Positions 4,824 to 48,842 of a stretch of DNA of 64,000 nt are shown piece by piece (position 1 is the first letter of the stretch; the number at the start of each line of letters is the position of its first letter). The position numbers and the translations under genes were made by a program. Under the pieces are notes generated by a model. It was not told the origin of the DNA and ran no database searches. It worked only from the letters and a program-made list of their open reading frames with translations. Origin of the DNA: an uncultured Ruminococcus sp. (GTDB taxonomy: Bacteria > Bacillota > Clostridia > Oscillospirales > CAG-272); the NCBI GenBank assembly GCA_902778725.1, contig CACYYS010000013.1:2608-66607 (forward strand), in the 5' to 3' direction.

Positions 4824-4886
4824 ATTGTTGTCTTTAATCCCGATTTTGGGAAAAGAATAAAAAAATATATAAACGGAGGCAAAATT

Positions 4887-5447
4887 ATGAAAAAGATCAT
4901 TACATTGGTGCTGGCACTTCTGATGCTCGTTAGCTTGGTAGCGTGCGGCACGACGGCCAACAATCCGGGGGACGACACCAAGCCCAACAATTCACAGAGC
5001 ACGAATACACCTGGTGACAATCAGCCAGCTAACAATTCAACTGAAATCAAGGATATCAATACTTCAAACTATGTTGAAGTGACGAATAAGAATTTCGGTA
5101 TTGACCCAAGTATATCCGGTTTGAAAATCACCAAAGCGAAAGCTCAAGGAAGTTCGCAGATCACACTGGTTTTCAGCATCGAGAGTGGAAACGAAGAGTC
5201 TTTCGTCAAAGCATTCTTTGAAAAATGCCTAAGTGCTTCCGATGACAAGGCATGCTACAGACAGGATTGGCCTGATGACGGCGGATACACGATTACTGTT
5301 GGCGAGAAAGTTACCAGTTGGGAATCCTGGAAACAGGAAGAAGCTTTCGACCAGAACTGGTTCTATCTTGTCGACGGCAAATACATTGCATTCGGCGGCA
5401 GTCAGCAGCCCGGCAATGAATTTGAAGTGACCATCAACTTCAAATAA
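4887..5447 (+). CDS. lipoprotein, unknown function
   Basis: Lipobox signal MKKIITLVLALLMLVSLVACG with a GGAGG RBS 8 nt upstream. AT-rich composition unlike the flanking DNA. Confidence 0.8.
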   Translation: MKKIITLVLALLMLVSLVACGTTANNPGDDTKPNNSQSTNTPGDNQPANNSTEIKDINTSNYVEVTNKNFGIDPSISGLKITKAKAQGSSQITLVFSIESGNEESFVKAFFEKCLSASDDKACYRQDWPDDGGYTITVGEKVTSWESWKQEEAFDQNWFYLVDGKYIAFGGSQQPGNEFEVTINFK

Positions 5448-6214
5448 TGCTTATGAAAAAAATAGTTTATATTATAGCGCTGTTGCTTGCCGTTGTTCTT
5501 TGTCTTTCAGCGTGCGGCAATAATACAAATCCGGGTAACTCTTCAACGACCCAGAATCAGGATGTTGAAGAAAAGGATGCAAATGGGCATGTCGTAAAAC
5601 TGAGTCACTACAATGACAAGGGCGATCTTGTTTTTGTACACGAAACGAAGTGGGAGAATGACCGCATTGTCAAGAAGACCAGTTTTGACGGCAAGGGCAA
5701 TCAGACCGCTTCAATCGATTACAAATATGACGATAACGGTAATGCGATTGAAACTTCGTGGTTTGGCTGGAGCAGCGGTGTTCTTATGAAAGCCGAATCT
5801 AAGTTTGATGACAAAAACCGCGAAATCGAAAGAACCCAGATCGGTACCGGCAGCATTTCCACAAACAAATCCATTATGGAATATGTGGAATTCCCTGACG
5901 GCGTTGACCATCCAAATATCTATTCCAAGAAGACTTACTATCCGTCATATCCCGGTGACCGTTATACTGTAACCACATACGAGTATAATGACGATTACAA
6001 GATGACAAAGGCCACCACGGTCGACCAGAACGGAAATCTTTCGTACTACATTCTTTACACTTATGAGAACGGCAAGCTGATGGAATACACCAATTACGGC
6101 GCTGACGATAAGCCGAGTTATACCTACAAAATGGTCTATGACGAGAACGGAAACAAGCTCAGAGAAGATCGTTACGACGGCAACGGTAACCTTCAGGGTT
6201 CAGACAAAAGTTGA
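5447..6214 (+). CDS. lipoprotein with YD/RHS-like short repeats
   Basis: Lipobox LLAVVLCLSACG. Repeated motifs YNDKGD, YKYDDNGN, YDENGN and YDGNGN. An alternative start exists at ATG 5453. Confidence 0.8.
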   Translation: MLMKKIVYIIALLLAVVLCLSACGNNTNPGNSSTTQNQDVEEKDANGHVVKLSHYNDKGDLVFVHETKWENDRIVKKTSFDGKGNQTASIDYKYDDNGNAIETSWFGWSSGVLMKAESKFDDKNREIERTQIGTGSISTNKSIMEYVEFPDGVDHPNIYSKKTYYPSYPGDRYTVTTYEYNDDYKMTKATTVDQNGNLSYYILYTYENGKLMEYTNYGADDKPSYTYKMVYDENGNKLREDRYDGNGNLQGSDKS

Positions 6215-6297
6215 TTCTTTAAAGACGAAGTTTTCATAAGAAAAAAGAGCTTTTTATAAAAACAATTAGTAATCTGCTTCTTGAGGAGATTTTTGTA

Positions 6298-6798
6298 ATG
6301 AAAAAATTAATCGCATTGTTTTTAGTTGCAGTGATGGTTTTGTCATTTGCGGCATGTGGAAAGAAGGATACCCCAAAGGACGAAGCTAGCCAAACTCAGG
6401 CAACAGAAGGCTCTAAAGACACAACGAAAGCTGATGAGAGCGTTGCAGATATCGGTGTTACGGTTATTCATAAAGACGGTAAGACAATATTTACCGTTGA
6501 TCAGAGACTTGGAATCAAGCAGGATGCTTGGGTTGGTTTCTGTCCCGGAACTGAGGGCTATGTTAATGAGGCGGATGCTGATGCAAATCAAGTTGCGTAT
6601 GCTTATACAGGCTATGATGAAGGAAATGATACCTACAACTTTGAATTTGATGATGATACGATCTCAGGACTTGGCGATGGTGACTATGTTGTCGTAGTTT
6701 GTGACAGCGATGCTGAGGGCAAAGTCATTCTTTATATACCTGCTGTTATTCAAGGTTCTAAAGTCACATGTGACTTTAGCAAAGCTGTCATTAACTGA
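6298..6798 (+). CDS. lipoprotein, unknown function
   Basis: Lipobox MKKLIALFLVAVMVLSFAACG with a GGAG RBS. AT-rich composition. Confidence 0.8.
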   Translation: MKKLIALFLVAVMVLSFAACGKKDTPKDEASQTQATEGSKDTTKADESVADIGVTVIHKDGKTIFTVDQRLGIKQDAWVGFCPGTEGYVNEADADANQVAYAYTGYDEGNDTYNFEFDDDTISGLGDGDYVVVVCDSDAEGKVILYIPAVIQGSKVTCDFSKAVIN

Positions 6799-6934
6799 TT
6801 TGTCGGAAGACTTATACGTCTATAACGGCGAAGAAAAGATAATCAAAGAAGAACAGTATGCCGGCGAAAAAACCTTGTAAGCGTTGACTATACGGGTTCG
6901 TAATGTTTTAGGCGTCATAAAGGAGTAAGAGAAA

Positions 6935-7456
6935 ATGAGCTTTTTATCAAAACTGTTAGGCGGAGATAAAAACGCCGAAAAAGAGGTAAAGAATCTGCTG
7001 AACGGACTTTTCGGAAATCCGCAGCCGGGACAGGCCGCCGCGCCGAAACAAGAGACTCCCGCAGAGGAGACTCCTTCCCCTCAGCCGGTCCAAAGCACCT
7101 CGCGTTCCGGCTTTTCGTGGGGCGATGAAATGCCGGCGGAGGAAAACCAGTATAACTATAACGGCACCTACGAGCAGTATTTTGAACACGTGTTCGCCGA
7201 GGATTTCCCCGCATACCGGTTTGAAAAGACGTATATCGACGATTACGGCAAGCACCGCGTGATTTACACGTTTTTCAGCGGCGGAACAAAGGCGCTCGTC
7301 ATCGAGCTTATGACCGCGTCGAGCGAGGCGGTCAAGTTCAGAAACGATTGCAGAAAAGCGGGTGTCCCGTATCTTCGCTTTTATTACGACTACAAGGGCT
7401 GGTGGAACACCCGCGCTTACGTGGTCGGACGTATGCGCTCGGTATTGAACGGCTGA
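6935..7456 (+). CDS. hypothetical protein upstream of the RT
   Basis: 173-aa ORF with an AAGGAG RBS. It has a disordered P/Q/E-rich N-terminal half. The C-terminal half (VIYTFFSGGTKALVIELM...KFRNDCRKAGVPYLRFY) loosely resembles restriction-endonuclease-fold modules. This is a weak impression only. Confidence 0.6.
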   Translation: MSFLSKLLGGDKNAEKEVKNLLNGLFGNPQPGQAAAPKQETPAEETPSPQPVQSTSRSGFSWGDEMPAEENQYNYNGTYEQYFEHVFAEDFPAYRFEKTYIDDYGKHRVIYTFFSGGTKALVIELMTASSEAVKFRNDCRKAGVPYLRFYYDYKGWWNTRAYVVGRMRSVLNG

Positions 7457-7475
7457 GCGCACAGCAACATTTGTT

Positions 7476-7613
7476 AAAAAGCAGAAAGAGAACGCTTTGC
7501 GCCTGCGGCGGACCCGGCACGGACAAACGTATGACTTCGCAGGCAGTCTGTGCGTGTACGGTCTTGTACATCCCGAAATTTTCGGGATTTAACGGATTCT
7601 CTTTCTGCTTTTT
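7476..7613 (+). ncRNA. candidate structured RNA element, stem-closed, upstream of the RT gene
   Basis: A perfect 17-bp inverted repeat (aaaaagcagaaagagaa at 7476-7492, ttctctttctgcttttt at 7597-7613) encloses 104 nt. That interior holds three local hairpins: gcctgcg/cgcaggc, tgtac/gtaca and atcccgaaa/tttcgggat. A T-rich tract follows. The RT ATG is 18 nt downstream. Confidence 0.5.
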
Positions 7614-7631
7614 CTTTTTTCGGGGTGGAGT

Positions 7632-8876
7632 ATGTCGCTTTTGGATCAGCTTTCGGACGAAGCCGTCTGGAACCGGTTTTATGAATACAAGTTATCGCTC
7701 GCCTGTCCCAAACAGTTTACGGGCGAGCTGCGCCGTTTTATCGACGAAAAGCGGTATCTGCCGGTATGTGAAATCATAAACGCCGGGAAGGATTTCCCGA
7801 TCCCGCAAAAGTCCATCATCGCCAAAATGGGCACGGACAAAAAGCGTGTGGTCTATACCTATCCCCGGGACGAAAACACGGTGCTGAAGCTGCTGACGTG
7901 GATGATCCTGCGGAAATACGACCGGATTTTCAGCCGTAACCTCTATTCGTTCCGCCCCGGCAGGACCGCAAAAGACGCGGTGCGCGACCTGCTGAAAACC
8001 GGGAAAGTCTCGCAGGCGTACTCCTACAAGGTCGATATCCACGACTATTTCAATTCCGTCCCCGTAAAGCGCCTGCTGCCGATGCAGAAAGCCGCGCTCG
8101 GAGACGATGAAAAACTGTATTCCTTCCTTGCAAAGCTGCTGCTTGAACCGCGCGTATCCGACCGGGGAAAGGTGATCGTCGAGCGCAAGGGCATTATGGC
8201 GGGAACGCCGCTGTCCTCTTTTTACGCCAATCTGTATCTTTCGGAGCTTGACCGGCATTTTGAGGAATCGGGCGTGATCTACGCCAGATATTCCGACGAT
8301 ATGATCGTGTTTTCCCCCGATGAAGCCCAAGTGAAAAAACACGCAGAGTTTATCCGTTCCTTTCTCGCCGCGAATTCGCTCACCGTGAATCCCGCAAAAG
8401 AGAACTTCGGAGATCCCGGAGACGGATTCGTCTTTCTCGGTTTTTCCTGCGTCGGCAACAAGGTGGATATCGCGCCCGCGACCGTGAAAAAGCTGAAACA
8501 AAAAATGCGCCGCAAGCGCGACGCGCTCTCGCGGTGGCAAAAACGCAACGGATTCGGCGGCGAGAAAGCGGCGAAAGCGTTTATCCGTATTTTCAACGCC
8601 AAGCTGCTCGAATCCCCGCGCGACAACGAGCTCTCCTGGAGCCACTGGTTCTTCCCGGTGATCAACACGACAGAAAGCCTGCACGCCATCGATCTCTACG
8701 CGCAGGACTGCCTGCGGTATCTGATCAGCGGAAGGCACACAAAGGCGCGGTTCAACGTGCGGTATGAGGATCTGAAAGCACTCGGTTACCGCTCGCTTGT
8801 CCACGCCTGCTACCGTCACGCCGCCGAAAATCCGCAAGAGAAAGAAACCGGCAAAAACGGCGGGGTCGGCAAATGA
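7632..8876 (+). CDS. free-standing reverse transcriptase (class undetermined; no endonuclease or other fused domain)
   Basis: RT motifs are present in order: KKRVVYTYP (1), SFRPGRTAKDA (2), YKVDIHDYFNSV (3), GIMAGTPLSSFYANLYLSELD (4), ARYSDDMIVF (5), LTVNPAKE (6), FVFLGF (7). A helical thumb-like region of about 140 aa follows. Confidence 0.9.
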   Translation: MSLLDQLSDEAVWNRFYEYKLSLACPKQFTGELRRFIDEKRYLPVCEIINAGKDFPIPQKSIIAKMGTDKKRVVYTYPRDENTVLKLLTWMILRKYDRIFSRNLYSFRPGRTAKDAVRDLLKTGKVSQAYSYKVDIHDYFNSVPVKRLLPMQKAALGDDEKLYSFLAKLLLEPRVSDRGKVIVERKGIMAGTPLSSFYANLYLSELDRHFEESGVIYARYSDDMIVFSPDEAQVKKHAEFIRSFLAANSLTVNPAKENFGDPGDGFVFLGFSCVGNKVDIAPATVKKLKQKMRRKRDALSRWQKRNGFGGEKAAKAFIRIFNAKLLESPRDNELSWSHWFFPVINTTESLHAIDLYAQDCLRYLISGRHTKARFNVRYEDLKALGYRSLVHACYRHAAENPQEKETGKNGGVGK

Positions 8877-9766: not shown

Positions 9767-10165
9767 TTACCGGTACATCGCAAGCTCGGCGGAATCCATA
9801 AACTGACACATCGACAGGTTGAAGCCGCGGTAATCGGCCTCCGAGAACTCTTCCGTCGCCGAGGCGACGGTCGCCCGGACGAGATCGAGCTGACTGAAAA
9901 AGGTGACCGAAAGCGGCACGCGCAGGATCCCGGAGATCCCGCGGACCGTAAGACAGCCGGCCTCCCGGAGGGAGAGGACCTCCTTTTCGTTTCGGACGGG
10001 AACGGTCCTTTCCCGCTCCGCGTCGCCGACAAGCAGCTCCGGCTCCTCCATATCGGAAAAAAGCAGCGCCGCCGCGCGGCAGATCTGCTCCCAGCCGACC
10101 CGGTAGGTCAGCCTCCACTCGGAAAAAAGCCAGTCCCCCTCTTTTTTCACGCCTGACAACGTCAT
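9767..10165 (-). CDS. hypothetical protein
   Basis: 132-aa ORF with coding-like composition in the same orientation as its neighbours. Confidence 0.5.
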   Translation of the reverse strand: MTLSGVKKEGDWLFSEWRLTYRVGWEQICRAAALLFSDMEEPELLVGDAERERTVPVRNEKEVLSLREAGCLTVRGISGILRVPLSVTFFSQLDLVRATVASATEEFSEADYRGFNLSMCQFMDSAELAMYR

Positions 10166-38303: not shown

Positions 38304-38340
38304 CAAAAAGCGGAGCTGCTGCTCCGCTCATTTGTTTTTT
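38304..38340. terminator. bidirectional terminator at the left edge of the AT-rich island
   Basis: The hairpin agcggagc-tgct-gctccgct is flanked by an A5 run upstream and a T-rich tract (TTTGTTTTTT) downstream. Confidence 0.7.
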
Positions 38341-38351
38341 CTATACCGTTG

Positions 38352-39014
38352 CTATTTGTTTCCTATCCGGTTTCTGATGTCGTTCAACCATTCGCCTTTA
38401 TATTTGAAATACTTTGGGCCTGCAAGCGCCCACTTCGTTCCAAGTAAATGCTTTGCGAGCGCAGTCATCGCCCAGCTTTTTCCATCGTACTCGACATGTT
38501 TATCATCGACTACAGTACACATAATTCCAGTTGGTTCATTTCTGCTTTTCCAAAACTCAATTTGCTCCCCAACAGCAATATTGCACATGGAAAATGTAAA
38601 CGGCGCAAGGCGCTCTTGATGCGCTTCGCTGATCTCTTTCGCGGTTTCTTCCTCTTTTTGTTCTTCTGGCGTGGCTTTCCGTTTTTCCAGGCGGTGTTTA
38701 AAACCGTTAATTTCAGCGATCGCATCGAGAATATCATAGGCGTCTTCCGGCGTCATGGCGTAAAACTCGCGAACACGCTTTTTGCCGTTGATCTCCTCGG
38801 TAGAACGCAGTTCCGGATTCAGTTTGTCCAAAATGGAATGCAGCTTTTTATCGGAAAGCTCCGAATCCACTTCGTATGTAGCATAAATGCGGAACGCAAA
38901 CGGCACCGCCGAACTGCGATTCAGCTCGTCTAAACGCTGCTTTACGTCTTTCGCATACCCGATCTTTACATATTCCGGAAACGACGGATTCGTCAGAATG
39001 TAGATGTAGCCCAT
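38352..39014 (-). CDS. T5orf172 / GIY-YIG-like domain protein with C-terminal extension
   Basis: N-terminus MGYIYILTNPSFPEYVKIGYAKDVKQRLDELN (T5orf172/GIY-YIG-type). It is the last gene of the R-M-linked operon. Confidence 0.7.
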   Translation of the reverse strand: MGYIYILTNPSFPEYVKIGYAKDVKQRLDELNRSSAVPFAFRIYATYEVDSELSDKKLHSILDKLNPELRSTEEINGKKRVREFYAMTPEDAYDILDAIAEINGFKHRLEKRKATPEEQKEEETAKEISEAHQERLAPFTFSMCNIAVGEQIEFWKSRNEPTGIMCTVVDDKHVEYDGKSWAMTALAKHLLGTKWALAGPKYFKYKGEWLNDIRNRIGNK

Positions 39015-39070: not shown

Positions 39071-40123
39071 TTACTTTAAATAGGACTTCACCAGTTTAAC
39101 AAATTCTCCAATATCAGAAAAGTAGTTTGGATAAGCTTTTCTCAATGCATTGAATGATGCAACGCGAACAAGAACTGCGTCAATTTTTGTTTCTGCTCTT
39201 GTTGCTTCAATAGAATTGTAAATCTCGTTTGCTTCTTCGATTTGGCTTGCTCCAAACGCTTTGATTTGTAGCCTGTTGGTGTTGTAATTCAATATTAGAA
39301 TGTAATATGCTGCAGACGATTTTGCGCCTTTGAGCTTTTGATTATCAACAGCGATGCGAATTCCGCTTAAGAAATCTAAATAGTTATGTTTTGAGTTTAG
39401 TTGCTCAATTTCTAAAACAATCTCATCTTGATCATCAATTACATTTGGTGGGAGCGGTTGCCCTTCTTTTTTTGCTATCAATGCTGACACAAGGACAAAG
39501 AAACGTTTTACATCATCTGATCCAAAACCAGACTTGATGCTTTCTTTCGTAAATAATCCCATCGTTTCAACTGCAGTTGCCCATACGTGCTGTAAATGGG
39601 TTCTGAATTGAATCTCTATGAGCATGTTTTTATTGTATGTTTCATTTTTGTCGCTGTGATATTCATATACGGCATGCAAACTACGATATCCGGAAACTTT
39701 GGGATTCTCAATGTAATCGTATTTCTTTTTGAAAAGATGGCGTTTACTTGACTTATCATATTTGCCAAAATAGTCGTATACATCTTGAATGGTTGGTACA
39801 ATCACGCGACAACCGCCAAGGTCTTGCATGGTCCATAAATTCATGGATTGCTCACGCTTTAGTTTTCCGATGATAGAATCCAATCTTTTTAGTCTTTCAG
39901 CAACTATTGCGTTGTTATTAGATGCACACATCCTACGCAAATGTATGTAGATAACATGAAGCGGAAAAGCGTGTGCAGCTCGCCAATTATCAATAATGTC
40001 CGTCGCCTGTTTAATATCTTCTTCCGAAGAATTCTCTTGACGTATAGTCTTTCCTGCATTTATTATTTGCGACCTTGAATACTCAACGGTTTTCCATTTT
40101 GGCTGAATAACTGGTTGCGCCAT
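39071..40123 (-). CDS. RelA/SpoT-homologue (RSH) synthetase-domain protein with ~135-aa C-terminal domain
   Basis: Synthetase motifs RLKRLDSIIGKLKRE, DLGGCRVIV, SGYRSLHAVY and IEIQFRTHLQHVWATAVE. No HD hydrolase domain. Starts 15 nt after the hsdS stop. Confidence 0.85.
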   Translation of the reverse strand: MAQPVIQPKWKTVEYSRSQIINAGKTIRQENSSEEDIKQATDIIDNWRAAHAFPLHVIYIHLRRMCASNNNAIVAERLKRLDSIIGKLKREQSMNLWTMQDLGGCRVIVPTIQDVYDYFGKYDKSSKRHLFKKKYDYIENPKVSGYRSLHAVYEYHSDKNETYNKNMLIEIQFRTHLQHVWATAVETMGLFTKESIKSGFGSDDVKRFFVLVSALIAKKEGQPLPPNVIDDQDEIVLEIEQLNSKHNYLDFLSGIRIAVDNQKLKGAKSSAAYYILILNYNTNRLQIKAFGASQIEEANEIYNSIEATRAETKIDAVLVRVASFNALRKAYPNYFSDIGEFVKLVKSYLK

Positions 40124-40138
40124 TTTTATTTCTCCTAT

Positions 40139-41560
40139 CTAATCTCTAATTTCATCGCACACGGCGAGGAGTTTGTCTAAACGATCAACAATCCGCTTCT
40201 GCTCGGCAAGAGGCGGGAGCGGAAAATACAAGTTTTTAAGTATATCGAACGGAGGAATATTAGTTATTGCCATACCGTTCCCGTCTTTAGCGCGGCTTTT
40301 CAACTGCGAATCAAAATAATATAAGAAGAATCGCTTATCTATTGATGGTACGACAGTTATCCGCATAAGTGCTTGATTAATTATCCCGCGCTCGATTTCC
40401 TCCGGCATAATATACGTTTCACCAATTGTACCCGCACAACTAACGATAATATCTCCGGGCATAACCTCAAATCCTTTCATTGAGGTTTCAAAATACTCTC
40501 TGGTGATGTAATATGTACCCAAGGTATGATCTTTATTGATGGCGTGTTGTTGCTCATAAATTTTTACGGTGTTTTCGCTTTTTGGGACGAACATAGACTT
40601 TGTTAAGGAGCTGCCAAACGGACCTTTTCTAAAAAATCCTGTCTCCCCGAATCTTATCCATTTCCAATTGTTCGGTACATCAAAAGGTACATCTTCATCA
40701 ATCGGAAGGATGTTATTATCCTTTCTCCCTTTGTGTGTGATAATAATATCTGTCTTTTCAGCTTGTATTTGCTGATATAGTTCTTCTGCCGAGCCATCTT
40801 CAGGGCGCTGTTCTGTCAGTTTGCCCTGAATGGCGAGGTCAATAAGCTTGCTTTTCAGCACGGTGAGATTATCGGCGTACTGCGCCTGCAGTTCGTCGAT
40901 GGCGTCGAGAACGGAAAACACCTGCTCGATTTTTTCGACAATGCGTTTTTGTTCAGTTAATGGAGGAACTGGAATTATAAGTTTTTTAAGAGTAGTTAGA
41001 TTAACGCCTCCAATTAAGCCCGTCACTTTGTTTTTGAATATTTTTTTGAAAGAATTACTCTGTAGATAATAATACAAATAATATGGACTAATGATTGTTG
41101 TATAAAATTTGCATAGTTTGTTCCCATAACAAACGTTTTGATCTATGATTGCGATTTTTCTTCCGGCGCTTCCTCCTTCAATACACAGAAGCACAGAAGA
41201 AGCCTCAGCAACTACAAATCCCTGTTCATTATTGGGAATACGGACTCCATTGTCATAGTCTACCACATGGTCAAAACCAACATCCTTAGTCCCTATATAT
41301 GCAAATCCACCAATATAGCCTTGATAGTTTTCTTTTTTCACATCCTCGGGTATGCTTGTGCCGGTGCTTATCTGAGAAAGCTGCTTTAACGGTGCACTAC
41401 ACCATGTGGAAGGTATGTCTTTATTTTCATTAGATGCAATATTTATTTTTTTTAGCGCAAGGTATTGCCTAATATTTGAATCGGAATCCAATTGTTCAGT
41501 AAGTTTGCCTTGAATAGCGAGATCTAATATTTTGTCTCTGATGGATTGTGTATCAATCAA
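40139..41560 (-). CDS. hsdS: type I restriction-modification specificity subunit
   Basis: Two target-recognition domains. The conserved helices LDLAIQGKLTEQ / LIDLAIQGKLTEQ and PPLTEQKRIV / PPLAEQKRIV are each repeated. Confidence 0.9.
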   Translation of the reverse strand: MIDTQSIRDKILDLAIQGKLTEQLDSDSNIRQYLALKKINIASNENKDIPSTWCSAPLKQLSQISTGTSIPEDVKKENYQGYIGGFAYIGTKDVGFDHVVDYDNGVRIPNNEQGFVVAEASSVLLCIEGGSAGRKIAIIDQNVCYGNKLCKFYTTIISPYYLYYYLQSNSFKKIFKNKVTGLIGGVNLTTLKKLIIPVPPLTEQKRIVEKIEQVFSVLDAIDELQAQYADNLTVLKSKLIDLAIQGKLTEQRPEDGSAEELYQQIQAEKTDIIITHKGRKDNNILPIDEDVPFDVPNNWKWIRFGETGFFRKGPFGSSLTKSMFVPKSENTVKIYEQQHAINKDHTLGTYYITREYFETSMKGFEVMPGDIIVSCAGTIGETYIMPEEIERGIINQALMRITVVPSIDKRFFLYYFDSQLKSRAKDGNGMAITNIPPFDILKNLYFPLPPLAEQKRIVDRLDKLLAVCDEIRD

Positions 41561-42984
41561 AACTCGATCCCTCCCAGCAAGTCTTTCAAACGGGCAACGG
41601 CTGATGCGATGCCGTCCGATTCTTCCTGCATTTCGTCCAGGATCTCCGAAACGGAGCGGTCGTCCTCCTCAGTGAAGTCAAGCCATTTGAAGTTGAGGTC
41701 TTCGCGCCCGGCGACTTCTTCGGCGGAGAATCTGCGCCATCTTCCGTTGGGGTTGGTCTCGGCGTTATAGGTCTCCTTGCGGTCTTCTCTGTGGCCGGTG
41801 CAGAAGCAGTCCACGAACTCCTGCAGATGCTCTCTGGTCATCGGCTTTTTAACAAGTGAATGTTTTACCCCCGCTCGATAATCATATACCCAGATATCTT
41901 TCGTTGGTTCACCTTTTTCAAAGAAGAGGACGTTTGTCTTGACGCTAGGTTTGTAAAAAATACCTTTCGGAAGACGAAGAATAGTGTGTAAATTGAAGTC
42001 CTTCAGTAATTTGTCTCTAACTTTTTTGGTGGAGTCGCCGTCGGTGAGGATGCTGTCCGGCAGGACGACGCCGACTCTGCCGCCGGTCTTGACAATGGAC
42101 ATAATATGCTGCAGGAAATTGACCTGATTATCCGAAGTTTTTATAAACTCCGGGCGGTTTGCCGAAACGTCCACGCTGCCCTGCGGACGGATGCCGAAGG
42201 GCGGATTGGTCATAACCACCTGATACATCTTGTCCGACGTGTCGATCAGGGAATCCTGATAGGCGATAGGGCTACGGTTAACGCCGATATCGTGCAGATA
42301 CAGGTTCATCGACGCGAGCGTCACCACAAGAGAGGTATTGTCCGCACCGAACAGCGCGTTGTTTTTGAGAAACTTCTGCTTTTCGATATCCCGGCTCTGG
42401 GTACGCATATGCTCGTAGGCGGCAAGAAGGAAGCCCGCCGTGCCGCAGCAGGGGTCCGCCACGGTCTCGGTGATCTTGGGGTCGACCACGTCCACGATCG
42501 CGGAGATCAGCGCACGGGGCGTGAAATACTGCCCGGCGCCGCTTTTCATATCTTGTCCGTTTCTCTCAAGAATGTTTTCGTAAATAGCCCCTTTGATGTC
42601 ACCGTCCATCATATACCAGTTGTCCTCGGACACCATGTCGATGACCTTTTTGAGCATCACGGGTTTGTCGATCTTGTTGGTCGCTTTGGTGAAAATGGTG
42701 CCGATCAGACCGTCCGACTGCGAAAGCTCTTTCAAAATGTCTTCGTATTTGTCCACAAGGTCGGTGCCGCTGAGCGCGGAAAGGTCTTTCCACTTATAGC
42801 CCTCCGGCAGGTGGCTTTCCAGTCCCATCGCCTCTTTCTCGTCGTCCATTTTGAGGAACAGGATATAAGTGAGCTGGGTGATATAATCGGTAAAGCCCAC
42901 GCCTGCCGCCGCGAGGACATTGGCGATATTCCATACTTTTGAAATGAGGGCGGATTCGGTTTTCTGTGTTGCCATTTCGTACAC
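41557..42984 (-). CDS. hsdM: type I restriction-modification N6-adenine DNA methyltransferase subunit
   Basis: HsdM N-terminal helix region, SAM site DPCCGTAGFL, and catalytic NPPFG. The stop overlaps the hsdS start. Confidence 0.92.
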   Translation of the reverse strand: MYEMATQKTESALISKVWNIANVLAAAGVGFTDYITQLTYILFLKMDDEKEAMGLESHLPEGYKWKDLSALSGTDLVDKYEDILKELSQSDGLIGTIFTKATNKIDKPVMLKKVIDMVSEDNWYMMDGDIKGAIYENILERNGQDMKSGAGQYFTPRALISAIVDVVDPKITETVADPCCGTAGFLLAAYEHMRTQSRDIEKQKFLKNNALFGADNTSLVVTLASMNLYLHDIGVNRSPIAYQDSLIDTSDKMYQVVMTNPPFGIRPQGSVDVSANRPEFIKTSDNQVNFLQHIMSIVKTGGRVGVVLPDSILTDGDSTKKVRDKLLKDFNLHTILRLPKGIFYKPSVKTNVLFFEKGEPTKDIWVYDYRAGVKHSLVKKPMTREHLQEFVDCFCTGHREDRKETYNAETNPNGRWRRFSAEEVAGREDLNFKWLDFTEEDDRSVSEILDEMQEESDGIASAVARLKDLLGGIEF

Positions 42985-42987
42985 CTC

Positions 42988-45741
42988 TTACGCTGCTTTC
43001 AGCAGGAATTTTGATAAAGTCAGTATCTCTTCCGCAAGGACCAGCGCGGTAAACGCTTTCACTCCTCTGCGCCAGAGATCGGTGGCGATCTCATTGAGTT
43101 CTCCGACGGAGATCGCGCCGTCGTTTACGACAAATTCCGCGATCTGCCGCATGATCTCCTTTTGATCGCTTGTCAGTTCACGCTGCGCCTGACCGCAGTA
43201 CAGATTGAATTTCTGCGCGTACCCGGGGATCAGACTGGTAAGCTTTTGGTTTTTTCTGTACGCAAAGCGCACGATCTGAATGAGGTTGGTCAGCGCGTTG
43301 ACGTTGGTTTTGACGTCCAGTTCGTCCACGTCGCCCACGTCGTCGAGCGTTTTGTAATTCTTCCAGATCTGATAGACGCCGTACTGCCGGTTTTCGGAAA
43401 GGAGCCGGTCGCGCAGATCGAGAAGCATACTGTGGGTGATGACGGTATCTTCGGAATTATAGATGATGCGCAGCGCTTCGATGCTGTCTTTGTTATCGTC
43501 GAGGTATTTCTCAAAGTTTTCAATAAACGTGCGTGCCGTTTCTTTGGAAAAGCCGGCGTAGATCAGCTCGTCGGGATCATCTTCCGTCGTCACCACATAG
43601 CCGCGCTGCATTTCAAGCAACTTTCGCCGCGCGGGAACGTTATAGATCAGATCGGCGATCAGTTCCATGCGGTCGGCGTTTTCTTCCGATGGGCTGAAAT
43701 ACGGCGGGAGCGTTTCATGATCGAACGCATCCTGGATCTTTGCGGCTATCGTTTTAGGGGCAAAGCCATATTCCGAGATGAAGAAATCCAGGTGTCTGCC
43801 GAACAGGGCGTTATCCTCATAGCGGCGGTTGATCGTGGAGCAATAGTCGCGCAGAAGCAGCAAGTTTTCGTCGCTCAGTTCGTTGTGCGCGAGGTGTTCG
43901 AGCAGGGCTTCCAGCGTGAAGACTTTGCCTTTTCCGACGCCACCGCCCGGATGGGGGATATTCTTTTCATGCTCGGTCACGCCGACCGCGTCCACGATGT
44001 AATAACACTCTTTCGTGTTGGCGTTGGGCGTCACTTCGCGCAGTTTGTCGTCGTCCACCACGCGGCAGCCGCGTCCTTTCATCTGCGTGTAAAGTACGTC
44101 GGAGTTCACGTCTTTCATAAAGAGGACGACTTCCAGCGGCTTGACGTCGGTACCGGTCGCCACGAGCGTTACCGTGACGGCGATACGGAAATCCTTTTCC
44201 GTGCGAAGATCGCGGATCAGTCCGTTGGAGTCCTCCGCCGTATAGGTGATCTTCTGCACGAAATGCTCCGGTACTTCGCCGCCCTCAAATTCTTCGCCGA
44301 AGACTTCTTTTGCCACCTCGACGATTTGCGAAGCGTGGTTATCATCTTTTGCGAAGATCAGCGTTTTCGGTATGTACGCCCACTTTTTCTCGCGATCGGG
44401 GTAGAGATCTTCGTAAATTGCTTTTTTGTATGCCGTAAGCACTTCTTTGATCTGATCGGGATTGATGACAGAGCGGTCGAGTGCGTTCGGCGCGTAGTCG
44501 ATGCGGTGGTGCACTTCGTAAGACGTCACCTCGCCGGTTTTGCGTGCGATCTCGGTAACGGTCGTGTCCGGATTGATCGCGCCGCCGTGCTCGGTGACCT
44601 GTGTTTTGATGCGGTATATGCGCGCGGGAACGTTGACCCCGTCAACCACGGAGTCTTCGTAGGTATATTCTTCAATGATATTGTTGTTGAAAAAGGCGTA
44701 CGCTTCGGGTGTGGGCGTTGCAGTCAGCCCGAGCACGTGAGCAGATGAGAAATAGTCAAGCACAGCGCGCCATTTTCCATAAATGGAGCGGTGGCACTCG
44801 TCAACAATGATAAGCTGAAAGTAATCGGGCGGCAAAGTGAGATTGTCGCCAAGCTGAATGACTTTCGTTTCGTTCTTTTCATCTTCTGCGGCGTTTTTCT
44901 CATCCTCCGCGTCTTCATTATCGTCGCTCGGGATCGCGTTGCCGGTCAGAACAGCGAAAAGTTTTTGTATTGTGGATATGACGATGTCGGCTTTGATATC
45001 GTTTTCTTTTTTCAGCCGTTTGATCTCATACAGCGAGCTCATTTCCTGCTGACCTTCGGTGCGGTCAAAGGTGCTGAATTCGCTCTCGGTCTGACGTGCA
45101 AGGTTGTTTCTGTCCACGAGGAAAAGAATCTTTCTCGCCGGGGTATAGTTCAAAAGCCGATAACTTGCAAGGCAGGCAAGATAAGTTTTACCGGAGCCGG
45201 TCGCCAATACGGCGAGGCTCTTTTTTGTGCCCTGCTTGATGGACTGTTCAAACGCAACTTCCGCACGATACTGGCAATCGCGCAGTCCGCGCTTGTCCAG
45301 CCTCGGAAGAGCGCCGTATTCGGAAACTTGTCCGATAATCTGTAGCATCTTTTTGGGCGAGTGCATTTCGGACAATTCTACATAATCGCTGTCCGGCTGC
45401 AACATGTTTTTGAAATAGATCTTCTTGCCGTTTGCGAGGTAAACGAGCGGGATACGATTCGGGAACCACAACCCATACCAGTCCTGCGGATTGCAGGCAT
45501 AATCTTCCGCCTGCTTTTCGACTTCGTCGCCAAGCGGATTCTCTTCGCGCTTTGCCTCAACGACGGCGATTGCCTTATCATCGACGAAAAGAAGGTAATC
45601 GCTTTCGGTGTTGCCTTGCATAAGTGCTTCTTTTACGGCAGACGCACTTTTCGGGACATACTCGTCCCTTGATACGATGTCCCATCCCGCGTCGATGAGC
45701 TGTTTATCAATTTTGACTCTTGCTTTTTCTTCAGGCAGCAT
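42988..45741 (-). CDS. hsdR: type I restriction endonuclease subunit R
   Basis: N-terminal KIDKQLIDAGW nuclease region, helicase motif I ATGSGKT, and motif II VDECHRS. The start at ATG 45741 has an AGGAGA RBS. Confidence 0.92.
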   Translation of the reverse strand: MLPEEKARVKIDKQLIDAGWDIVSRDEYVPKSASAVKEALMQGNTESDYLLFVDDKAIAVVEAKREENPLGDEVEKQAEDYACNPQDWYGLWFPNRIPLVYLANGKKIYFKNMLQPDSDYVELSEMHSPKKMLQIIGQVSEYGALPRLDKRGLRDCQYRAEVAFEQSIKQGTKKSLAVLATGSGKTYLACLASYRLLNYTPARKILFLVDRNNLARQTESEFSTFDRTEGQQEMSSLYEIKRLKKENDIKADIVISTIQKLFAVLTGNAIPSDDNEDAEDEKNAAEDEKNETKVIQLGDNLTLPPDYFQLIIVDECHRSIYGKWRAVLDYFSSAHVLGLTATPTPEAYAFFNNNIIEEYTYEDSVVDGVNVPARIYRIKTQVTEHGGAINPDTTVTEIARKTGEVTSYEVHHRIDYAPNALDRSVINPDQIKEVLTAYKKAIYEDLYPDREKKWAYIPKTLIFAKDDNHASQIVEVAKEVFGEEFEGGEVPEHFVQKITYTAEDSNGLIRDLRTEKDFRIAVTVTLVATGTDVKPLEVVLFMKDVNSDVLYTQMKGRGCRVVDDDKLREVTPNANTKECYYIVDAVGVTEHEKNIPHPGGGVGKGKVFTLEALLEHLAHNELSDENLLLLRDYCSTINRRYEDNALFGRHLDFFISEYGFAPKTIAAKIQDAFDHETLPPYFSPSEENADRMELIADLIYNVPARRKLLEMQRGYVVTTEDDPDELIYAGFSKETARTFIENFEKYLDDNKDSIEALRIIYNSEDTVITHSMLLDLRDRLLSENRQYGVYQIWKNYKTLDDVGDVDELDVKTNVNALTNLIQIVRFAYRKNQKLTSLIPGYAQKFNLYCGQAQRELTSDQKEIMRQIAEFVVNDGAISVGELNEIATDLWRRGVKAFTALVLAEEILTLSKFLLKAA

Positions 45742-45855
45742 AGAGCTTTCTCCTAACATTTTTCTTTCAATTCGAACCCACAGGGTATCACGCCGGCTCT
45801 GTTTTCGAGCGTCGGGCATCATGACCAACCTGCGGGGGTTCGAATCGAGGCGGGT

Positions 45856-47220
45856 TTATATCTTGTCGTTCAGGTCCGAAAAATCGGTGTTGAACAGGAT
45901 CTCCTTCGGCAGTTCCTGCTTTTGCAGGAACATCAGCATATAGATCGGGAAGTAGGTGACCTTGCCGTCTGTTTCGACGTTGCCGTTGCAGAAGACGTAG
46001 CCCTCTTCAATGCCGTAGTCCGTAACGTTCAGCACGTTATCCATCGCGTTGTGGCGGTAGTAGTCCTTGCCGGATTTGATCTCGATCGGCAGGATCCTGC
46101 CGTCCTCTTCGATTACGAAGTCAAGCTCGCCGAATTTTTTGCTGTTGTAGTAATAGAGCGTATATCCGTGCGCGGTCAGTTCCTCGGCGGCGACGTTTTC
46201 GTAAATGGAACCGAAGTTTATTGTTGTTTCGTGCTGCAGGATCTTGAGCTGGATCTCATTGCCGTACTGCGCTGCGAGCAGGCCGACGTCGTTCGAGAAC
46301 AATTTGAACAGGTTCTTAGATTTTGAAAGCAGCAGCGGCACTCTCGGCTCGTCGACCACGTTCGCCGGGAGCGCGACGCCGGCGTTTTTCAGCCACAGGA
46401 AGCTGTCGTAATACTTGTCAAACCGCGCTTTTTCGCCCAGATTTTTCAGGATGAAGCGCTTGTTTTTCGCGTTCAGCTCGCTGGGGATCAGGTCGAAGAT
46501 CTCGTTGAGGTAGAGACGGTTTTTCTCGTCGTATTTTGAAATATCGCGCTTGTAAAGACGGATGATCGCGCTTTGCGCGTCGGCGACTTTGCGAAGGTTC
46601 TTCGTTTTCAGATAGGTGGATACCGCCTCCGGCATGCCGCCGACGATGAGGTAAAGCTCGAACAGCGCCGTCATGCGCTCGTGGATAAACGCGTCCACGG
46701 GCTTTTTCTTCTCAAACGAGCTCCGGAGCGCGTCGATGACCTTTGCGCCGACGTTGTTCGCCCAGGCAAATTCCTCGAAATCCAGCGGGTACATCGTGAT
46801 GATGTCCATGTATCCCACCGGGGCGGAGATGATGTCCTTGAAAACCGTTCCGAGCAGGGACCCGCTGAGGATATAGGAGTATTTGCCGTCCTGCACAAGG
46901 TACTTGATCTGCGTGATCAGTTCCTTGCATTCCTGCACCTCGTCAAAGAAGATCATCGTTTTTCCCGGGATCATCCGGTCGCCGAAAAGGGCGGAAAGGC
47001 GCAGCAAAATCTCGTCCGCACCCTGCGCCCCCTCGAAAAGCGTGATATAGTCCGGATTCTCGATGAAATCCATTTTGATCACGCTATCGTAGTGCGCGGC
47101 GGCGAACTGCTCGATTATATAGGACTTACCGACCTGACGGGCGCCGATGATCATCAGCGCCTTTTTCGGGTTGTCCTTGTAGAACTCTTCAATTTGCTTT
47201 GTGATTTTACGTTGGAGCAT
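45856..47220 (-). CDS. AAA family ATPase with DUF4143-like C-terminal domain
   Basis: Walker A GARQVGKS and Walker B IFFDEVQ. The C-terminal part is typical of the widespread ATPase/DUF4143 family. Confidence 0.8.
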   Translation of the reverse strand: MLQRKITKQIEEFYKDNPKKALMIIGARQVGKSYIIEQFAAAHYDSVIKMDFIENPDYITLFEGAQGADEILLRLSALFGDRMIPGKTMIFFDEVQECKELITQIKYLVQDGKYSYILSGSLLGTVFKDIISAPVGYMDIITMYPLDFEEFAWANNVGAKVIDALRSSFEKKKPVDAFIHERMTALFELYLIVGGMPEAVSTYLKTKNLRKVADAQSAIIRLYKRDISKYDEKNRLYLNEIFDLIPSELNAKNKRFILKNLGEKARFDKYYDSFLWLKNAGVALPANVVDEPRVPLLLSKSKNLFKLFSNDVGLLAAQYGNEIQLKILQHETTINFGSIYENVAAEELTAHGYTLYYYNSKKFGELDFVIEEDGRILPIEIKSGKDYYRHNAMDNVLNVTDYGIEEGYVFCNGNVETDGKVTYFPIYMLMFLQKQELPKEILFNTDFSDLNDKI

Positions 47221-47373: not shown

Positions 47374-47452
47374 ACGAAATATGCGAAACAAATTTCGCTT
47401 CATTTCGCATAGATTTCGCATTATTTCGCATAGATTTCGCTTGGAATTTCGC
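47374..47452. repeat. phased array of six ATTTCGC heptamers plus two inverted partial copies
   Basis: Direct copies start at 47392, 47402, 47413, 47423, 47434 and 47446 (spacing 10-12 bp). Inverted GCGAAA(C) and ACGAAAT copies lie at 47374-47389. Confidence 0.85.
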
Positions 47453-47520
47453 ATTCTTTTGTTTTGAAGTTCTCCTCCTTTTCGACCCCCGTTTGTCTTG
47501 TGAGCTTCAAACAAAACAAC

Positions 47521-47847: not shown

Positions 47848-48513
47848 TCACCTGTAATTATTCGTGACGATTGTGGCTCCGCAGTACGGGCAAAGTAATT
47901 TTTCGTAGTTTTTTAAATCATCTTGATTAAACGAAAGCGTCTCATCGCACTTAGGGCAGGCGATATCGACATATCTAAAATCTTCTTGATTAAACGAAAG
48001 CATCTCATCACTTTTAGGAAAAGTGCTATCAATATATCTGTCAGAAGAAAGATGTGTGTTTGTTTCCTCTTTCTTTGTATTCTGAAGTTCTTTCTCCTTT
48101 TTTCTTTTTTCAAGAACAATCCTTTTTTCCTTTTCGGAATCGATATTGTTTTCTTCAGCGCGTTTGGTAATCTGATGTTCTTTCTCTTTTTCAAGAACAA
48201 TCTTTTTTTCCTTTTCGGAATCAATACTCTTTTGTTCAATCTGATTGTTATCGTCTATTCGGGATACAAAAAAGCAAATAAGTGCGATGCCTATTATAAG
48301 AAAAAAAGCAAACAAACCAGTACGGACAATATTTGCCAAATCCCGGACGTTATTAGCCGCCTGTGCCGAAGCGTTTTGAATCCCGGTATAAGCAGCTCCG
48401 CCGTATTGGGAGGAAGACTCATAAAAACCTATGCTCATCTCCTTAATATCAAAAGAAAAAATGATCGATATTATACCGCAAATGATCCCGCCAATATTGC
48501 CAGCTTTTTTCAT
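47848..48513 (-). CDS. membrane protein with charged repeat linker and C-terminal zinc ribbon
   Basis: Two TM spans, a duplicated segment IDSEKEK(K/R)IVLEK, and C-terminal CPKCDETLSFNQ..CPYCG. A TTGCTT-17-TAAAAT promoter lies at 48553-48581 on the minus strand. Confidence 0.65.
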   Translation of the reverse strand: MKKAGNIGGIICGIISIIFSFDIKEMSIGFYESSSQYGGAAYTGIQNASAQAANNVRDLANIVRTGLFAFFLIIGIALICFFVSRIDDNNQIEQKSIDSEKEKKIVLEKEKEHQITKRAEENNIDSEKEKRIVLEKRKKEKELQNTKKEETNTHLSSDRYIDSTFPKSDEMLSFNQEDFRYVDIACPKCDETLSFNQDDLKNYEKLLCPYCGATIVTNNYR

Positions 48514-48717
48514 AATTCACCCTTTTTTGAATATATCTTTCGTGACGGGGTAATTTTATCACAAAAAGCGAGAAAAAGCAATTACTTTAGGAAAACTTCT
48601 GTAAATACGCGCGCCCCTGCGCGCTGCACGCCCTCGTCGGCGGCAGACCGTCCCCCGGACGCTCTGCCTTCCGAGCGCTCCGCGCTCTCCCTCCTTTTCG
48701 ACCCCCGCCTTCTCTTG

Positions 48718-48755: not shown

Positions 48756-48842
48756 TGGTGCCGGTGGCGGGGGTCGAACCCGCACGCCATTGCTGGCAAA
48801 GGATTTTGAGTCCTCCTCGTCTGCCAATTCCAACACACCGGC
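48756..48842 (-). tRNA. tRNA-Leu (anticodon CAA), class II with long variable arm
   Basis: The reverse complement folds as a cloverleaf. Elements: acceptor GCCGGTG/CACCGGC, anticodon arm GAGGA-CTCAAAA-TCCTT, variable arm TGCCAGCAATGGCGT, T arm GCGGG-TTCGACC-CCCGC, and an encoded CCA. Confidence 0.9.

Follow-up and report, generated by a model that had tools for sequence, protein, structure and literature searches.

The window, that is, the whole 64,000-nucleotide stretch of DNA that was analysed, carries a gene for a RelA/SpoT-homologue (RSH) protein in a same-strand array that also holds the genes of a type I restriction–modification (R-M) system. The array and its flanking elements are arranged as follows, in the order in which they would be transcribed.

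45856..47220, minus strand: AAA_14/DUF4143 ATPase (PADLOC PDC-S01), opening the same-strand array and lying 27 nt before hsdR
42988..45828, minus strand: hsdR with an EcoEI_R_C-type C-terminus (Pfam ResIII, SWI2_SNF2, EcoEI_R_C and HSDR_N)
41557..42984, minus strand: hsdM (Pfam HsdM_N and N6_Mtase; PADLOC MTase_I, E 9e-143)
40139..41560, minus strand: hsdS, 473 aa, with two target-recognition halves (Pfam Methylase_S twice; PADLOC Specificity_I)
40151..40207, minus strand: conserved hsdS 3′ tail, present as a single copy in the window
40124..40138, minus strand: hsdS–RSH spacer of 15 nt with an AGGAG Shine-Dalgarno sequence about 8 nt 5′ of the ATG (direct sequence reading)
39071..40123, minus strand: RSH gene, 350 aa, ATG start, assigned to the CapRel family of fused toxSAS toxin–antitoxins (Pfam, PADLOC PDC-S33, phmmer, AF2 and Foldseek)
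38352..39014, minus strand: T5orf172/MUG113-domain protein (PADLOC PDC-S57), final gene in the series
38308..38329, minus strand: intrinsic-terminator-like hairpin and T-run with a 9-bp stem, right after the T5orf172 gene, closing the array

The open reading frame proposed for the RSH protein is real, and the distance that separates it from hsdS is exactly the 15 nt first reported, with the hsdS stop codon ending at 40139 and the RSH start codon lying at 40123. Pfam domains confirm hsdR, hsdM and hsdS upstream and a T5orf172/GIY-YIG-like gene downstream. The initial annotation had described these genes as a five-gene operon; the five are indeed there, but the count omitted a sixth, the ATPase gene at the head of the array. 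The true start of hsdR is probably an internal ATG that yields a product of 917 aa, the length at which the gene is called in a contig 99.96% identical to the window.

Embedding of the RSH gene in the R-M operon, as originally claimed, is borne out by the short gap and the shared strand, and the gene is very probably co-transcribed with the R-M genes, judging from this anatomy. A terminator scan of the stretch returned no hairpin between hsdS, the RSH gene and the T5orf172 gene and ranked the hairpin at 38329–38308 second among its sites, a pattern that fits co-transcription. The GC content is low in the RSH gene (0.37) and likewise in hsdS (0.39), against 0.46 for the T5orf172 gene; that of the RSH gene (37%) contrasts with about 63% in the host. 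The island adjoins a tRNA-Leu gene, and a search for elements bounding it yielded, besides this tRNA gene, an 18-nt direct repeat around orf221 and no integrase. We propose that the six genes, from the PDC-S01 ATPase through hsdR, hsdM, hsdS and the RSH gene to T5orf172, form a mosaic, horizontally acquired defence array in which the RSH gene is cargo. The exact sequence of the RSH protein occurs solely on metagenome contigs.

The RSH protein possesses the complete synthetase core that had been ascribed to it, as the motifs DLGGCRVIV, SGYRSLH and EIQFRTHLQHVWA are all found, and in Pfam it matches RelA_SpoT at residues 76–183 (E 1.6e-19) with no HD or other hydrolase match, in keeping with the proposed lack of a hydrolase domain. 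Beyond this core, the sequence leads consistently to one characterised protein, CapRel-SJ46 of Salmonella phage SJ46, a fused toxSAS that acts as a tRNA pyrophosphokinase. In a phmmer search of the PDB, CapRel-SJ46 (7ZTB/9ERV) aligns end to end (E 2e-39, 30% identity, query 5–346 against chain 5–367), whereas RelQ and RelP match residues 72–189 only (E 1e-11 to 1e-7). The best match among 50,697 phage records is likewise the SJ46 RelA/SpoT gene, which covers 100% of the query at 31% identity; PhRel matches only residues 66–220 in these records (E 3e-7). Taking all PDB chains and phage records together, CapRel-SJ46 is the nearest protein over the full length, whereas PhRel and the small alarmone synthetases (SAS) are confined to the core.

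Structure prediction points the same way. The AF2 model (pLDDT 87.6, pTM 0.86) finds 7ZTB and 9ERV as its top Foldseek matches (E 7e-22, TM 0.67, about 355 columns), and SAS enzymes cover only its synthetase core. Compared with the open CapRel crystal form, the model shows an rmsd of about 10 Å at the same TM of 0.67, which is compatible with a different domain pose and with no more than that. PADLOC model PDC-S33, too, matches the window protein over its full length (E 1.2e-118). Since this model also recognises the experimentally validated CapRel-SJ46 (E 2e-86), the candidate label PDC-S33 and the CapRel family can be equated. The initial annotation had invoked CapRel as an analogy, for comparison with a predicted structure; the likeness was well seen, and it goes beyond analogy, the protein being a full-length homologue of the CapRel family.

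With a probability of roughly 0.8, we therefore read the gene, by analogy with CapRel-SJ46, as encoding a single-chain toxin–antitoxin of the CapRel toxSAS family, likely an autonomous tRNA pyrophosphokinase that would be triggered by a phage protein and abort infection. A housekeeping SAS of the RelP/RelQ type, adjoining the R-M genes by chance, would share the synthetase fold and catalytic motifs, the Pfam RelA_SpoT domain and the weak NCBIfam matches to YjbM. That explanation is effectively refuted by the core-only alignments of RelQ and RelP and by the score of 57.8 bits against the NCBIfam GTP diphosphokinase YjbM equivalog (GTPPhKinYjbM), for which the cut-off is 320; the grouping with housekeeping synthetases that the initial annotation had allowed for was thus not seen. 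RelQ and RelP are moreover single-domain (p)ppGpp synthetases of about 210–230 aa without the N- and C-terminal regions of CapRel, and the low GC content of the gene, its island beside tRNA-Leu and the patchy, MGE-borne distribution of its relatives are equally out of keeping with a housekeeping role. The original preference for a toxSAS-type defence effector over a housekeeping alarmone synthetase is upheld by the contrast between full-length and core-only matches.

Alignment with CapRel-SJ46 allows the CapRel-family protein to be divided into a toxin part and a putative sensor and antitoxin part, so that the separate N- and C-terminal regions first noticed around the core both find their counterparts.

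39524..40123, minus strand: predicted toxSYNTH (toxin) part, residues ~1–200, with N-terminal helices and the RSH synthetase core
39074..39523, minus strand: predicted C-terminal anchor helices and pseudo-ZFD-like sensor/antitoxin domain, residues ~201–350, aligning to CapRel-SJ46 206–367
39122..39133, minus strand: YPNY, a putative YXXY auto-inhibition motif (Y331–Y334) inside the conserved AYPNYF, mapping to CapRel-SJ46 Y352/Y355

The core residues R77, K79, D101, G104, R106, G145-Y146-R147, H150, E170, Q172 and R174 are invariant among 60 diverse homologues. Three of them, R77, R106 and Y146, are invariant in the 60-sequence and in the 102-sequence alignment, and map onto the ATP-coordinating arginines R79 and R116 and the G-loop tyrosine Y155 of CapRel-SJ46. 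In the C-terminal half, the AF2 model contains strands at 271–279 and 284–291, a helix at 292–307, a strand at 314–320 and then the C-terminal helices, amounting to a beta-beta-alpha-beta unit at 271–320 with helices on both sides. Within the nearly invariant AYPNYF, both alignments show Y334 as invariant and Y331 as conserved in at least 90% of sequences. The conserved pairs (SJ46/window) comprise A77/A75, R79/R77, R116/R106, Y155/Y146, V338/V317, L339/L318, A351/A330, Y352/Y331 and Y355/Y334. Among the interface residues A77, R116, V338, L339, A341 and A351, the sole difference falls at A341, a position mutated in CapRel-SJ46 studies, which is R320 in the window protein. The roles of the CapRel-SJ46 residues, including the function of YXXY, are described in PMC9712102.

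The most variable region of the family by column entropy is the sensor, residues 256–315. Entropy peaks at residues 256–270, with 3.30 in the broad and 2.51 in the close sequence set, against 1.1–1.5 and 0.4–0.75 in the core blocks; a hypervariable sensor has been reported for CapRel as well. The window protein thus resembles CapRel-SJ46 in length class, in domain order (N-terminal helices, toxSYNTH, anchors, pseudo-ZFD, YXXY and C-terminal helix), in its ATP-site arginines, G-loop tyrosine, YXXY and most interface residues, in its hypervariable sensor, and in being a single-gene system on mobile or accessory DNA. It differs in sequence, at about 30% identity and on a separate long branch of the tree, as well as in setting: CapRel-SJ46 resides in a prophage, the window gene inside a type I R-M operon of a high-GC, gut Clostridia-like host.

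These correspondences suggest how the CapRel-family protein may operate, with toxicity, auto-inhibition, substrate and trigger all extrapolated from CapRel-SJ46, to which it is just 30% identical. Residues ~1–200 would act as the toxSYNTH pyrophosphokinase, and residues ~200–350 would supply the anchor helices, the pseudo-zinc-finger-like sensor and the C-terminal YPNY plug. In the uninfected cell, the C-terminal domain would be folded back such that the YXXY turn lies between R77 and R106 and blocks the ATP pocket. During infection, a phage protein would bind the hypervariable sensor and keep the enzyme open, whereupon pyrophosphate would be transferred from ATP to the 3′-CCA end of tRNAs, halting translation and aborting the infection.

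A distinctly unlikely variant is that the activated enzyme targets nucleotides rather than tRNA, making (pp)pApp in the manner of FaRel and Tas1 or (p)ppGpp in the manner of GRel (Pag1B), and kills through ATP depletion or alarmone overload with tRNA left unmodified. The synthetase core is common to all RSH enzymes and its motifs alone do not reveal the choice of substrate; examples of both chemistries are known among defence toxSAS (PMC11782079; bioRxiv 10.64898/2026.04.06.716658). The closest characterised full-length relative is nevertheless a tRNA pyrophosphokinase, the PDB sequence search, up to E 10, returned no FaRel, Tas1 or GRel structure, and the NAP/YejK-like partner gene that PANGU requires is absent. 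PhRel/ATphRel (mycobacteriophage Phrann gp29/gp30) and PANGU GRel (Pag1B) are, like the protein proposed here, toxSAS effectors for phage exclusion; unlike it, PhRel relies on an antitoxin encoded by a gene of its own, and Pag1B depends on a NAP activator and produces pppGpp.

The downstream neighbour raises a further alternative, in which the RSH and T5orf172 (GIY-YIG-like) proteins would cooperate, for example as a sensor plus a nuclease. A terminator-free gap of 56 nt separates the two genes, and the pair is kept in a relative whose RSH protein is 95% identical (locus L007), at 86% nucleotide identity over 1.8 kb. Against such a partnership, just two of 91 loci, the window and L007, have T5orf172 beside the RSH gene, hsdR is the next gene in most R-M-embedded relatives, PADLOC lists separate single-gene candidates (PDC-S33 and PDC-S57), and the GC contents of the two genes diverge. 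A two-gene system is accordingly highly improbable, and the suggestion in the initial annotation that T5orf172 belongs to the system is not supported. As an obligatory partner T5orf172 was rejected, the co-occurrence being limited to the window's own lineage.

The relationship of the CapRel-like gene to the surrounding R-M genes was surveyed in species-representative genomes, with 41 members of the window's clade and 37 of its sister clade. The survey covered 80 of about 5,000 family members, and Hsd genes were located in all six frames with HMMs that had been built from Hsd proteins in successive rounds, longest-ORF calling being poor in high-GC loci. A type I R-M operon houses the gene in 16 of the 41 members of the window's clade and in none of the 37 sister-clade members (Fisher p 7e-6), which substantiates the expected association of homologues with R-M. 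The window and 11 representative loci have the RSH gene directly after hsdS, a position that is typical for the window's clade. The usual order in R-M-embedded members of this clade is hsdM-hsdS-X-hsdR, where X is the RSH gene, and embedding is seen with HsdR proteins of two types and in two different gene orders. A Pfam scan of the two nearest genes on either side of the sister-clade genes showed no recurrent family.

Neither L007 nor L001, whose RSH protein is 85% identical to that of the window, retains an intact R-M system. L007 carries two copies of the hsdS 3′ tail, one before a DUF2806 gene and one before the RSH gene, and in L001 a 46-aa C-terminal remnant of HsdS precedes the RSH gene; the tail is thus kept directly 5′ of cargo genes in related loci without intact hsdS. 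The location 3′ of hsdS probably arose by cassette exchange through recombination at this conserved tail. In support of autonomy, relatives occur alone on a phage-plasmid, on an IncF plasmid beside pifC, and together with AbiO/Nhi and Fic genes in a defence island that has no R-M.

A suicide module within a type I R-M operon has a well-known precedent in PrrC, an ABC-ATPase/nuclease that the R-M complex keeps inactive until T4 Stp releases it. The initial annotation had extended PrrC-like logic to the RSH protein. In a fully R-M-coupled version, the type I R-M complex would hold the RSH protein latent, or be monitored by it, and the toxin would fire when a phage anti-restriction protein disables restriction. 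In favour of such coupling are the EcoprrI precedent itself, the recurrent position after hsdS and the frequency of R-M embedding in the clade, the hsdS-tail remnants upstream of relatives outside R-M, and a locus (L061, from a MAG) in which the CapRel-like gene runs in frame into DUF4145-hsdR. The last is most simply explained by a lost stop codon, hsdR retaining its MCNFTFL start 18 codons downstream, and this fusion was left out of the evidence for coupling.

Several lines of evidence render a PrrC-like dependence on the R-M complex quite improbable. The window protein carries a seemingly complete cis-antitoxin with its own sensor and YXXY plug, so that no partner would be needed for latency, and both CapRel-SJ46 and CapRel-Ebc function on their own in E. 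coli (PMC9712102). In the tree, members inside and outside R-M operons are intermingled and form no separate sequence class, the R-M partners come from different HsdR families, and neither the 95% and 85% relatives nor the sister clade have R-M linkage of the kind that dependence would demand. PrrC is cited as almost exclusively R-M-embedded in Payne et al. (bioRxiv 10.1101/2024.01.29.577857), an exclusivity from which the present family departs, with about 40% of one clade and none of the sister clade embedded. The resemblance to PrrC of the EcoprrI operon would lie in being a translation-targeting suicide effector placed between R-M genes as a second line, the differences in the RSH fold and the cis-antitoxin. 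We thus favour a CapRel-like gene that is very probably co-transcribed with the R-M genes, that would provide a second defence line, and whose product would sense and act on its own.

A related arrangement is DarTG2 in the type I R-M island of EPEC, where an abortive module of the toxin–antitoxin type is similarly nested in, and expressed with, the R-M operon; DarTG2, however, ADP-ribosylates DNA, is a two-gene pair and has a dedicated repressor, RptR (PMC12255303). No RptR-like gene was identified at the window locus.

The strong, clade-specific linkage to hsdS, treated here as co-location, could also reflect a functional tie with R-M. One unlikely form of such a tie is that the hsdS-linked CapRel clade of gut Clostridia is wired to type I restriction, for example through a variable sensor for phage anti-restriction proteins or for an Hsd complex that has stalled or been disabled, with the hsdS 3′ tail serving as a recombination handle by which TRD2-plus-effector cassettes are swapped as a unit. 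Were this so, type I R-M operons would be integron-like platforms for abortive-infection effectors, and the CapRel-DUF4145-HsdR frame of L061 would be a genuine fusion.

The initial annotation had not recognised the arrangement as a described one, and the view that it is undescribed is not supported, given the end-to-end match to PDC-S33. The PDC candidates, taken as a set, are described in Payne et al. (bioRxiv 10.1101/2024.01.29.577857) as nominated through "guilt-by-embedding", that is, as genes inside BREX, DISARM or type I R-M, the last being the kind of embedding that the initial annotation had noticed. Our literature searches returned no match for "PDC-S33" and no paper describing CapRel placement within R-M operons. 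Found repeatedly in gut Clostridia, the hsdS-adjacent CapRel arrangement has already been listed as a defence candidate; it reveals no new kind of system, and the result is real but largely ordinary. Its value lies in assigning a mechanistic identity where annotation pipelines offer just the label "RelA/SpoT domain-containing protein", in equating candidate PDC-S33 with the validated CapRel family, and in the finding that, in gut Clostridia, about 40% of one large CapRel clade directly follows hsdS within type I R-M operons that belong to different families. These insights are useful for the annotation of defence systems and for understanding how R-M operons acquire second-line effectors.

The RelA/SpoT homologue (RSH) gene immediately 3′ of hsdS is the fifth of six genes on the minus strand, in the order ATPase, hsdR, hsdM, hsdS, RSH and T5orf172.

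45856-47220, minus strand: AAA_14/DUF4143 ATPase (Pfam; PADLOC PDC-S01, E 5e-195), 27 nt upstream of hsdR
42988-45828, minus strand: hsdR (Pfam ResIII, SWI2_SNF2, EcoEI_R_C)
41557-42984, minus strand: hsdM (Pfam HsdM_N, N6_Mtase)
40139-41560, minus strand: hsdS (Pfam, two Methylase_S halves)
39071-40123, minus strand: RSH gene, 350 aa, ATG start (reading of the ORF)
38352-39014, minus strand: T5orf172/MUG113 protein gene (Pfam; PADLOC PDC-S57)

The reading frame, its spacing from hsdS, its lack of a hydrolase domain and its three motifs (GGCRVIV, GYRSLH and EIQFRTHLQHVWA) are all as the initial annotation described them, on the minus strand. RelA_SpoT is the sole Pfam domain of the protein (residues 76-183, E 1.6e-19), and Pfam detects no hydrolase domain. 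Among all PDB chains, a sequence search returned a full-length match to the "RelA/SpoT family protein" of 7ZTB and 9ERV (E 2e-39, query 5-346 against chain 5-367) and core-only matches to RelQ, RelP, RelA and Rel (residues ~72-189, 1e-11 or worse). The 7ZTB sequence was rebuilt from the PDB-search alignment, and its numbering fits every residue that Zhang et al. 2022 name (A77, R79, R116, Y155, L280, L307, V338, L339, A341, A351, Y352 and Y355); the chain is therefore CapRel-SJ46, the fused toxSAS toxin-antitoxin and tRNA pyrophosphokinase of Salmonella phage SJ46. The window protein and CapRel-SJ46 share 30% identity in the family alignment, and the SJ46 gene is the best match among 50,697 phage records (31% over 100% of the query), where Phrann gp29 (PhRel) matches in the core only. 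The window protein is a new, divergent member of the known, experimentally characterised CapRel family. That it might instead be a housekeeping small alarmone synthetase of the RelP/RelQ type is scarcely conceivable, with the NCBIfam YjbM equivalog scoring 57.8 bits where its cut-off is 320.

The published functional residues of CapRel-SJ46 were mapped onto the window protein.

Residue correspondence between CapRel-SJ46 and the window protein
ATP-coordinating arginines: R79, R116 in CapRel-SJ46; R77, R106 in the window protein
G-loop tyrosine: Y155; Y146
YXXY plug: Y352, Y355; Y331, Y334, inside AYPNYF
Conserved interface residues: A77, V338, L339, A351; A75, V317, L318, A330
Differing interface residue: A341; R320

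In two homologue sets (60 sequences at 35-66% identity and 102 at 39-95%), no variation is seen at the catalytic residues, at E170/Q172/R174 or at Y334, and Y331 is conserved in at least 90% of either alignment. Column entropy in the family alignment reaches its maximum at residues 256-315, the sensor, and its minimum in the catalytic blocks, the same pattern as reported for CapRel. A confident AlphaFold2 model (102-sequence alignment; pLDDT 87.6, pTM 0.86) places anchor helices past the synthetase core, then a beta-beta-alpha-beta unit (271-320) and finally C-terminal helices, a layout that agrees with the described pseudo-ZFD and anchors of CapRel-SJ46 (PMC9712102). A Foldseek search of the PDB puts 7ZTB and 9ERV on top (E 7e-22, TM 0.67, ~355 columns), followed by RelQ and RelP at E 1e-7 with core coverage only; the ~10 Å rmsd to 7ZTB/9ERV would be compatible with a closed model set against an open crystal form.

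We put the probability that the window protein is an autonomous, fused CapRel-type abortive-infection protein at roughly 0.8. Homology, conserved residues, the modelled fold, the operon anatomy and recurrent embedding are what is observed, and the latency, trigger, substrate and outcome proposed here are drawn by homology from CapRel-SJ46 (PMC9712102). By that homology, the C-terminal domain would dock on toxSYNTH, and the YXXY turn would block the adenine site between R77 and R106 (PMC9712102). A phage protein binding the variable pseudo-ZFD would then hold the enzyme open, and the opened enzyme would pyrophosphorylate tRNA 3′ ends and halt translation. Substrate cannot be read from sequence, which leaves some room for a toxSAS that makes nucleotides, as FaRel, Tas1 and GRel do; yet such an activity is improbable, given that the closest characterised relative modifies tRNA and that the NAP partner gene is absent.

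The initial annotation, which proposed a toxSAS-type abortive effector nested in a restriction-modification (R-M) operon, was right in substance. It had also considered the arrangement undescribed, a view that does not survive inspection of PADLOC-DB v2, where model PDC-S33 covers the window protein end to end (E 1.2e-118). The PDC ("phage defence candidate") set comes from Payne et al., who nominated 145 candidates through their embedding in BREX, DISARM or type I R-M systems (bioRxiv 10.1101/2024.01.29.577857), and the R-M context is already mined by this published guilt-by-embedding screen. Because the PDC-S33 model also scores CapRel-SJ46 (2e-86, full length) and stand-alone plasmid homologues (~1e-120), it is, in effect, the fused-CapRel family. 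Our literature search found no paper explicitly placing CapRel within type I R-M operons.

Exactly 15 nt separate the hsdS stop from the RSH ATG, with AGGAG ~8 nt before the latter. A terminator scan found no site between hsdS, RSH and T5orf172 and a terminator-like site (9-bp stem and T-run, 38329-38308, second in the scan's ranking for this part of the sequence) directly after T5orf172, so the three genes are likely co-transcribed. The array occupies a low-GC island (~38.1-48.9 kb) in a genome of roughly 63% GC, flanked by luxS and a tRNA-Leu/ispH-S1 locus. Per-gene GC is mosaic: 0.37 for RSH, 0.39 for hsdS, 0.46 for T5orf172, and 0.52 for hsdM, hsdR and the ATPase.

Several further features of the island and the window were recorded. 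Genes related to the ATPase gene lie close to the CapRel-like gene, or to the R-M operon that carries it, at loci L011, L024, L028, L029 and L053. A Gut-1 RNA motif match (Rfam RF01706; 47629-47701, minus strand; 53 bits against a gathering score of 50) lies ~400 nt upstream of the array's first gene on the same strand. Upstream of the ATPase gene is a promoter-like site (47280-47252), and between this site and the Gut-1 match a 21-nt sequence repeated in tandem (ATTTCGCTTCATTTCGCATAG / ATTTCGCATTATTTCGCATAG, 47392-47433) overlaps a hairpin; the array might use it as an operator. Two perfect direct copies of the 18-nt sequence CCTCCTTTTCGACCCCCG (47474-47491 and 48690-48707) surround the Gut-1 match and orf221 (47848-48513, minus strand, 37% GC), whose 221-aa product is a membrane protein that has internal repeats and ends in a zinc ribbon at the C-terminal side; the whole may represent a small insertion next to tRNA-Leu(CAA) (48756-48842). 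Elsewhere in the window is a second defence-like locus (6935-8876, plus strand), with a low-GC stretch at 4797-7456. Its 414-aa reverse transcriptase matches PADLOC RT_UG26 (DRT; 8e-174), the preceding 173-aa protein matches RTasCOG2852 (3e-57), and neither Pfam nor PADLOC gives a match for the three other low-GC ORFs (4797-6798).

The family is large, with 1,342 clusters at 50% identity (E <= 1e-30), nearly all ~340-390 aa. Our survey took in 80 loci of species-representative genomes together with 11 on metagenome contigs, detecting Hsd genes by six-frame searches with HMMs iteratively built from Hsd proteins. A neighbour-joining tree resolves two clades, A (the window's; mostly Clostridia and other gut and rumen taxa) and B (soil and other environmental phyla, archaea and candidate-phyla bacteria), with CapRel-SJ46 outside both on a long branch. 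Homologues are indeed associated with R-M or defence loci: type I R-M genes lie within 4 kb in 16/41 clade A loci against 0/37 in clade B (Fisher p 7e-6), or 14/31 against 0/25 where at least 1.5 kb is available on both sides, and defence or mobile contexts occur elsewhere. A Pfam scan of clade B neighbours, two per side, found no recurrent family whatever. The usual clade A order is hsdM-hsdS-RSH-hsdR, with RSH directly after hsdS in 11 loci and an HsdR of T1RH-like_C type; the window differs in both order (hsdR-hsdM-hsdS-RSH) and HsdR type (EcoEI_R_C).

This hsdS linkage is what speaks for the PrrC-like logic of the initial annotation, in which the effector would depend on R-M. Such dependence is nevertheless unlikely, considering the cis-antitoxin within the protein, the relatives without intact R-M, the mixture of HsdR families, and the tree itself, in which embedded and non-embedded members are interspersed across clade A. 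Non-embedded relatives reside on a recombinase/ParB element with LmuA-like, AbiO/Nhi and Fic (PDC-S04) genes (locus L001), on an Acinetobacter phage-plasmid, and adjoining pifC on an IncF plasmid. A protein identical to that of the window occurs, with the same module, on six metagenome contigs. A two-gene system of RSH and T5orf172 is less probable still: among the loci surveyed the pair is confined to the window and locus L007, so T5orf172 is a neighbour rather than a partner.

Related R-M operons carry other cargo: in L008 (8705-9996), hsdS and the CapRel-like gene are separated by the gene of a DUF3800 protein and by a 52-aa ORF, and in L004 (6408-7310) a DUF5655 protein (PADLOC PDC-S18, E 3e-130) is encoded upstream of hsdM. 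In an Oscillospiraceae MAG (L061, 1757-6202, plus strand), a CapRel-like ORF without a stop runs in frame into a DUF4145-HsdR of EcoEI_R_C type (1,482 aa); hsdR retains its own MCNFTFL start 18 codons past the CapRel end. A functional fusion is less likely here than the loss of a stop codon or a fault in the assembly.

The L007 homologue is 95% identical to the window protein, and 1.84 kb is common to both loci at 86% nucleotide identity, from 84 nt inside the hsdS 3′ end through RSH and T5orf172. L007 holds no intact hsdS; of its two copies of a 57-85-nt hsdS tail (4879-4935 and ~5879-5947), one directly precedes a DUF2806 gene and the other the RSH gene. For the L001 homologue (85% identical), likewise outside any R-M system, 24 nt separate the ATG from a preceding 46-aa hsdS 3′-tail remnant (9839-9976, ending ...PLPPLAEQKRIVAKLDEILKMIDL*). 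Together with the low GC that hsdS and RSH share in the window, unlike hsdM and hsdR, these remnants suggest that cargo genes enter and leave the position after hsdS through recombination at its conserved 3′ region. Through its probable co-transcription with hsdRMS, the RSH protein would back up restriction, and the modest interest of the finding lies in a link to hsdS that is strong and specific to the clade, and in the hsdS-tail remnants.
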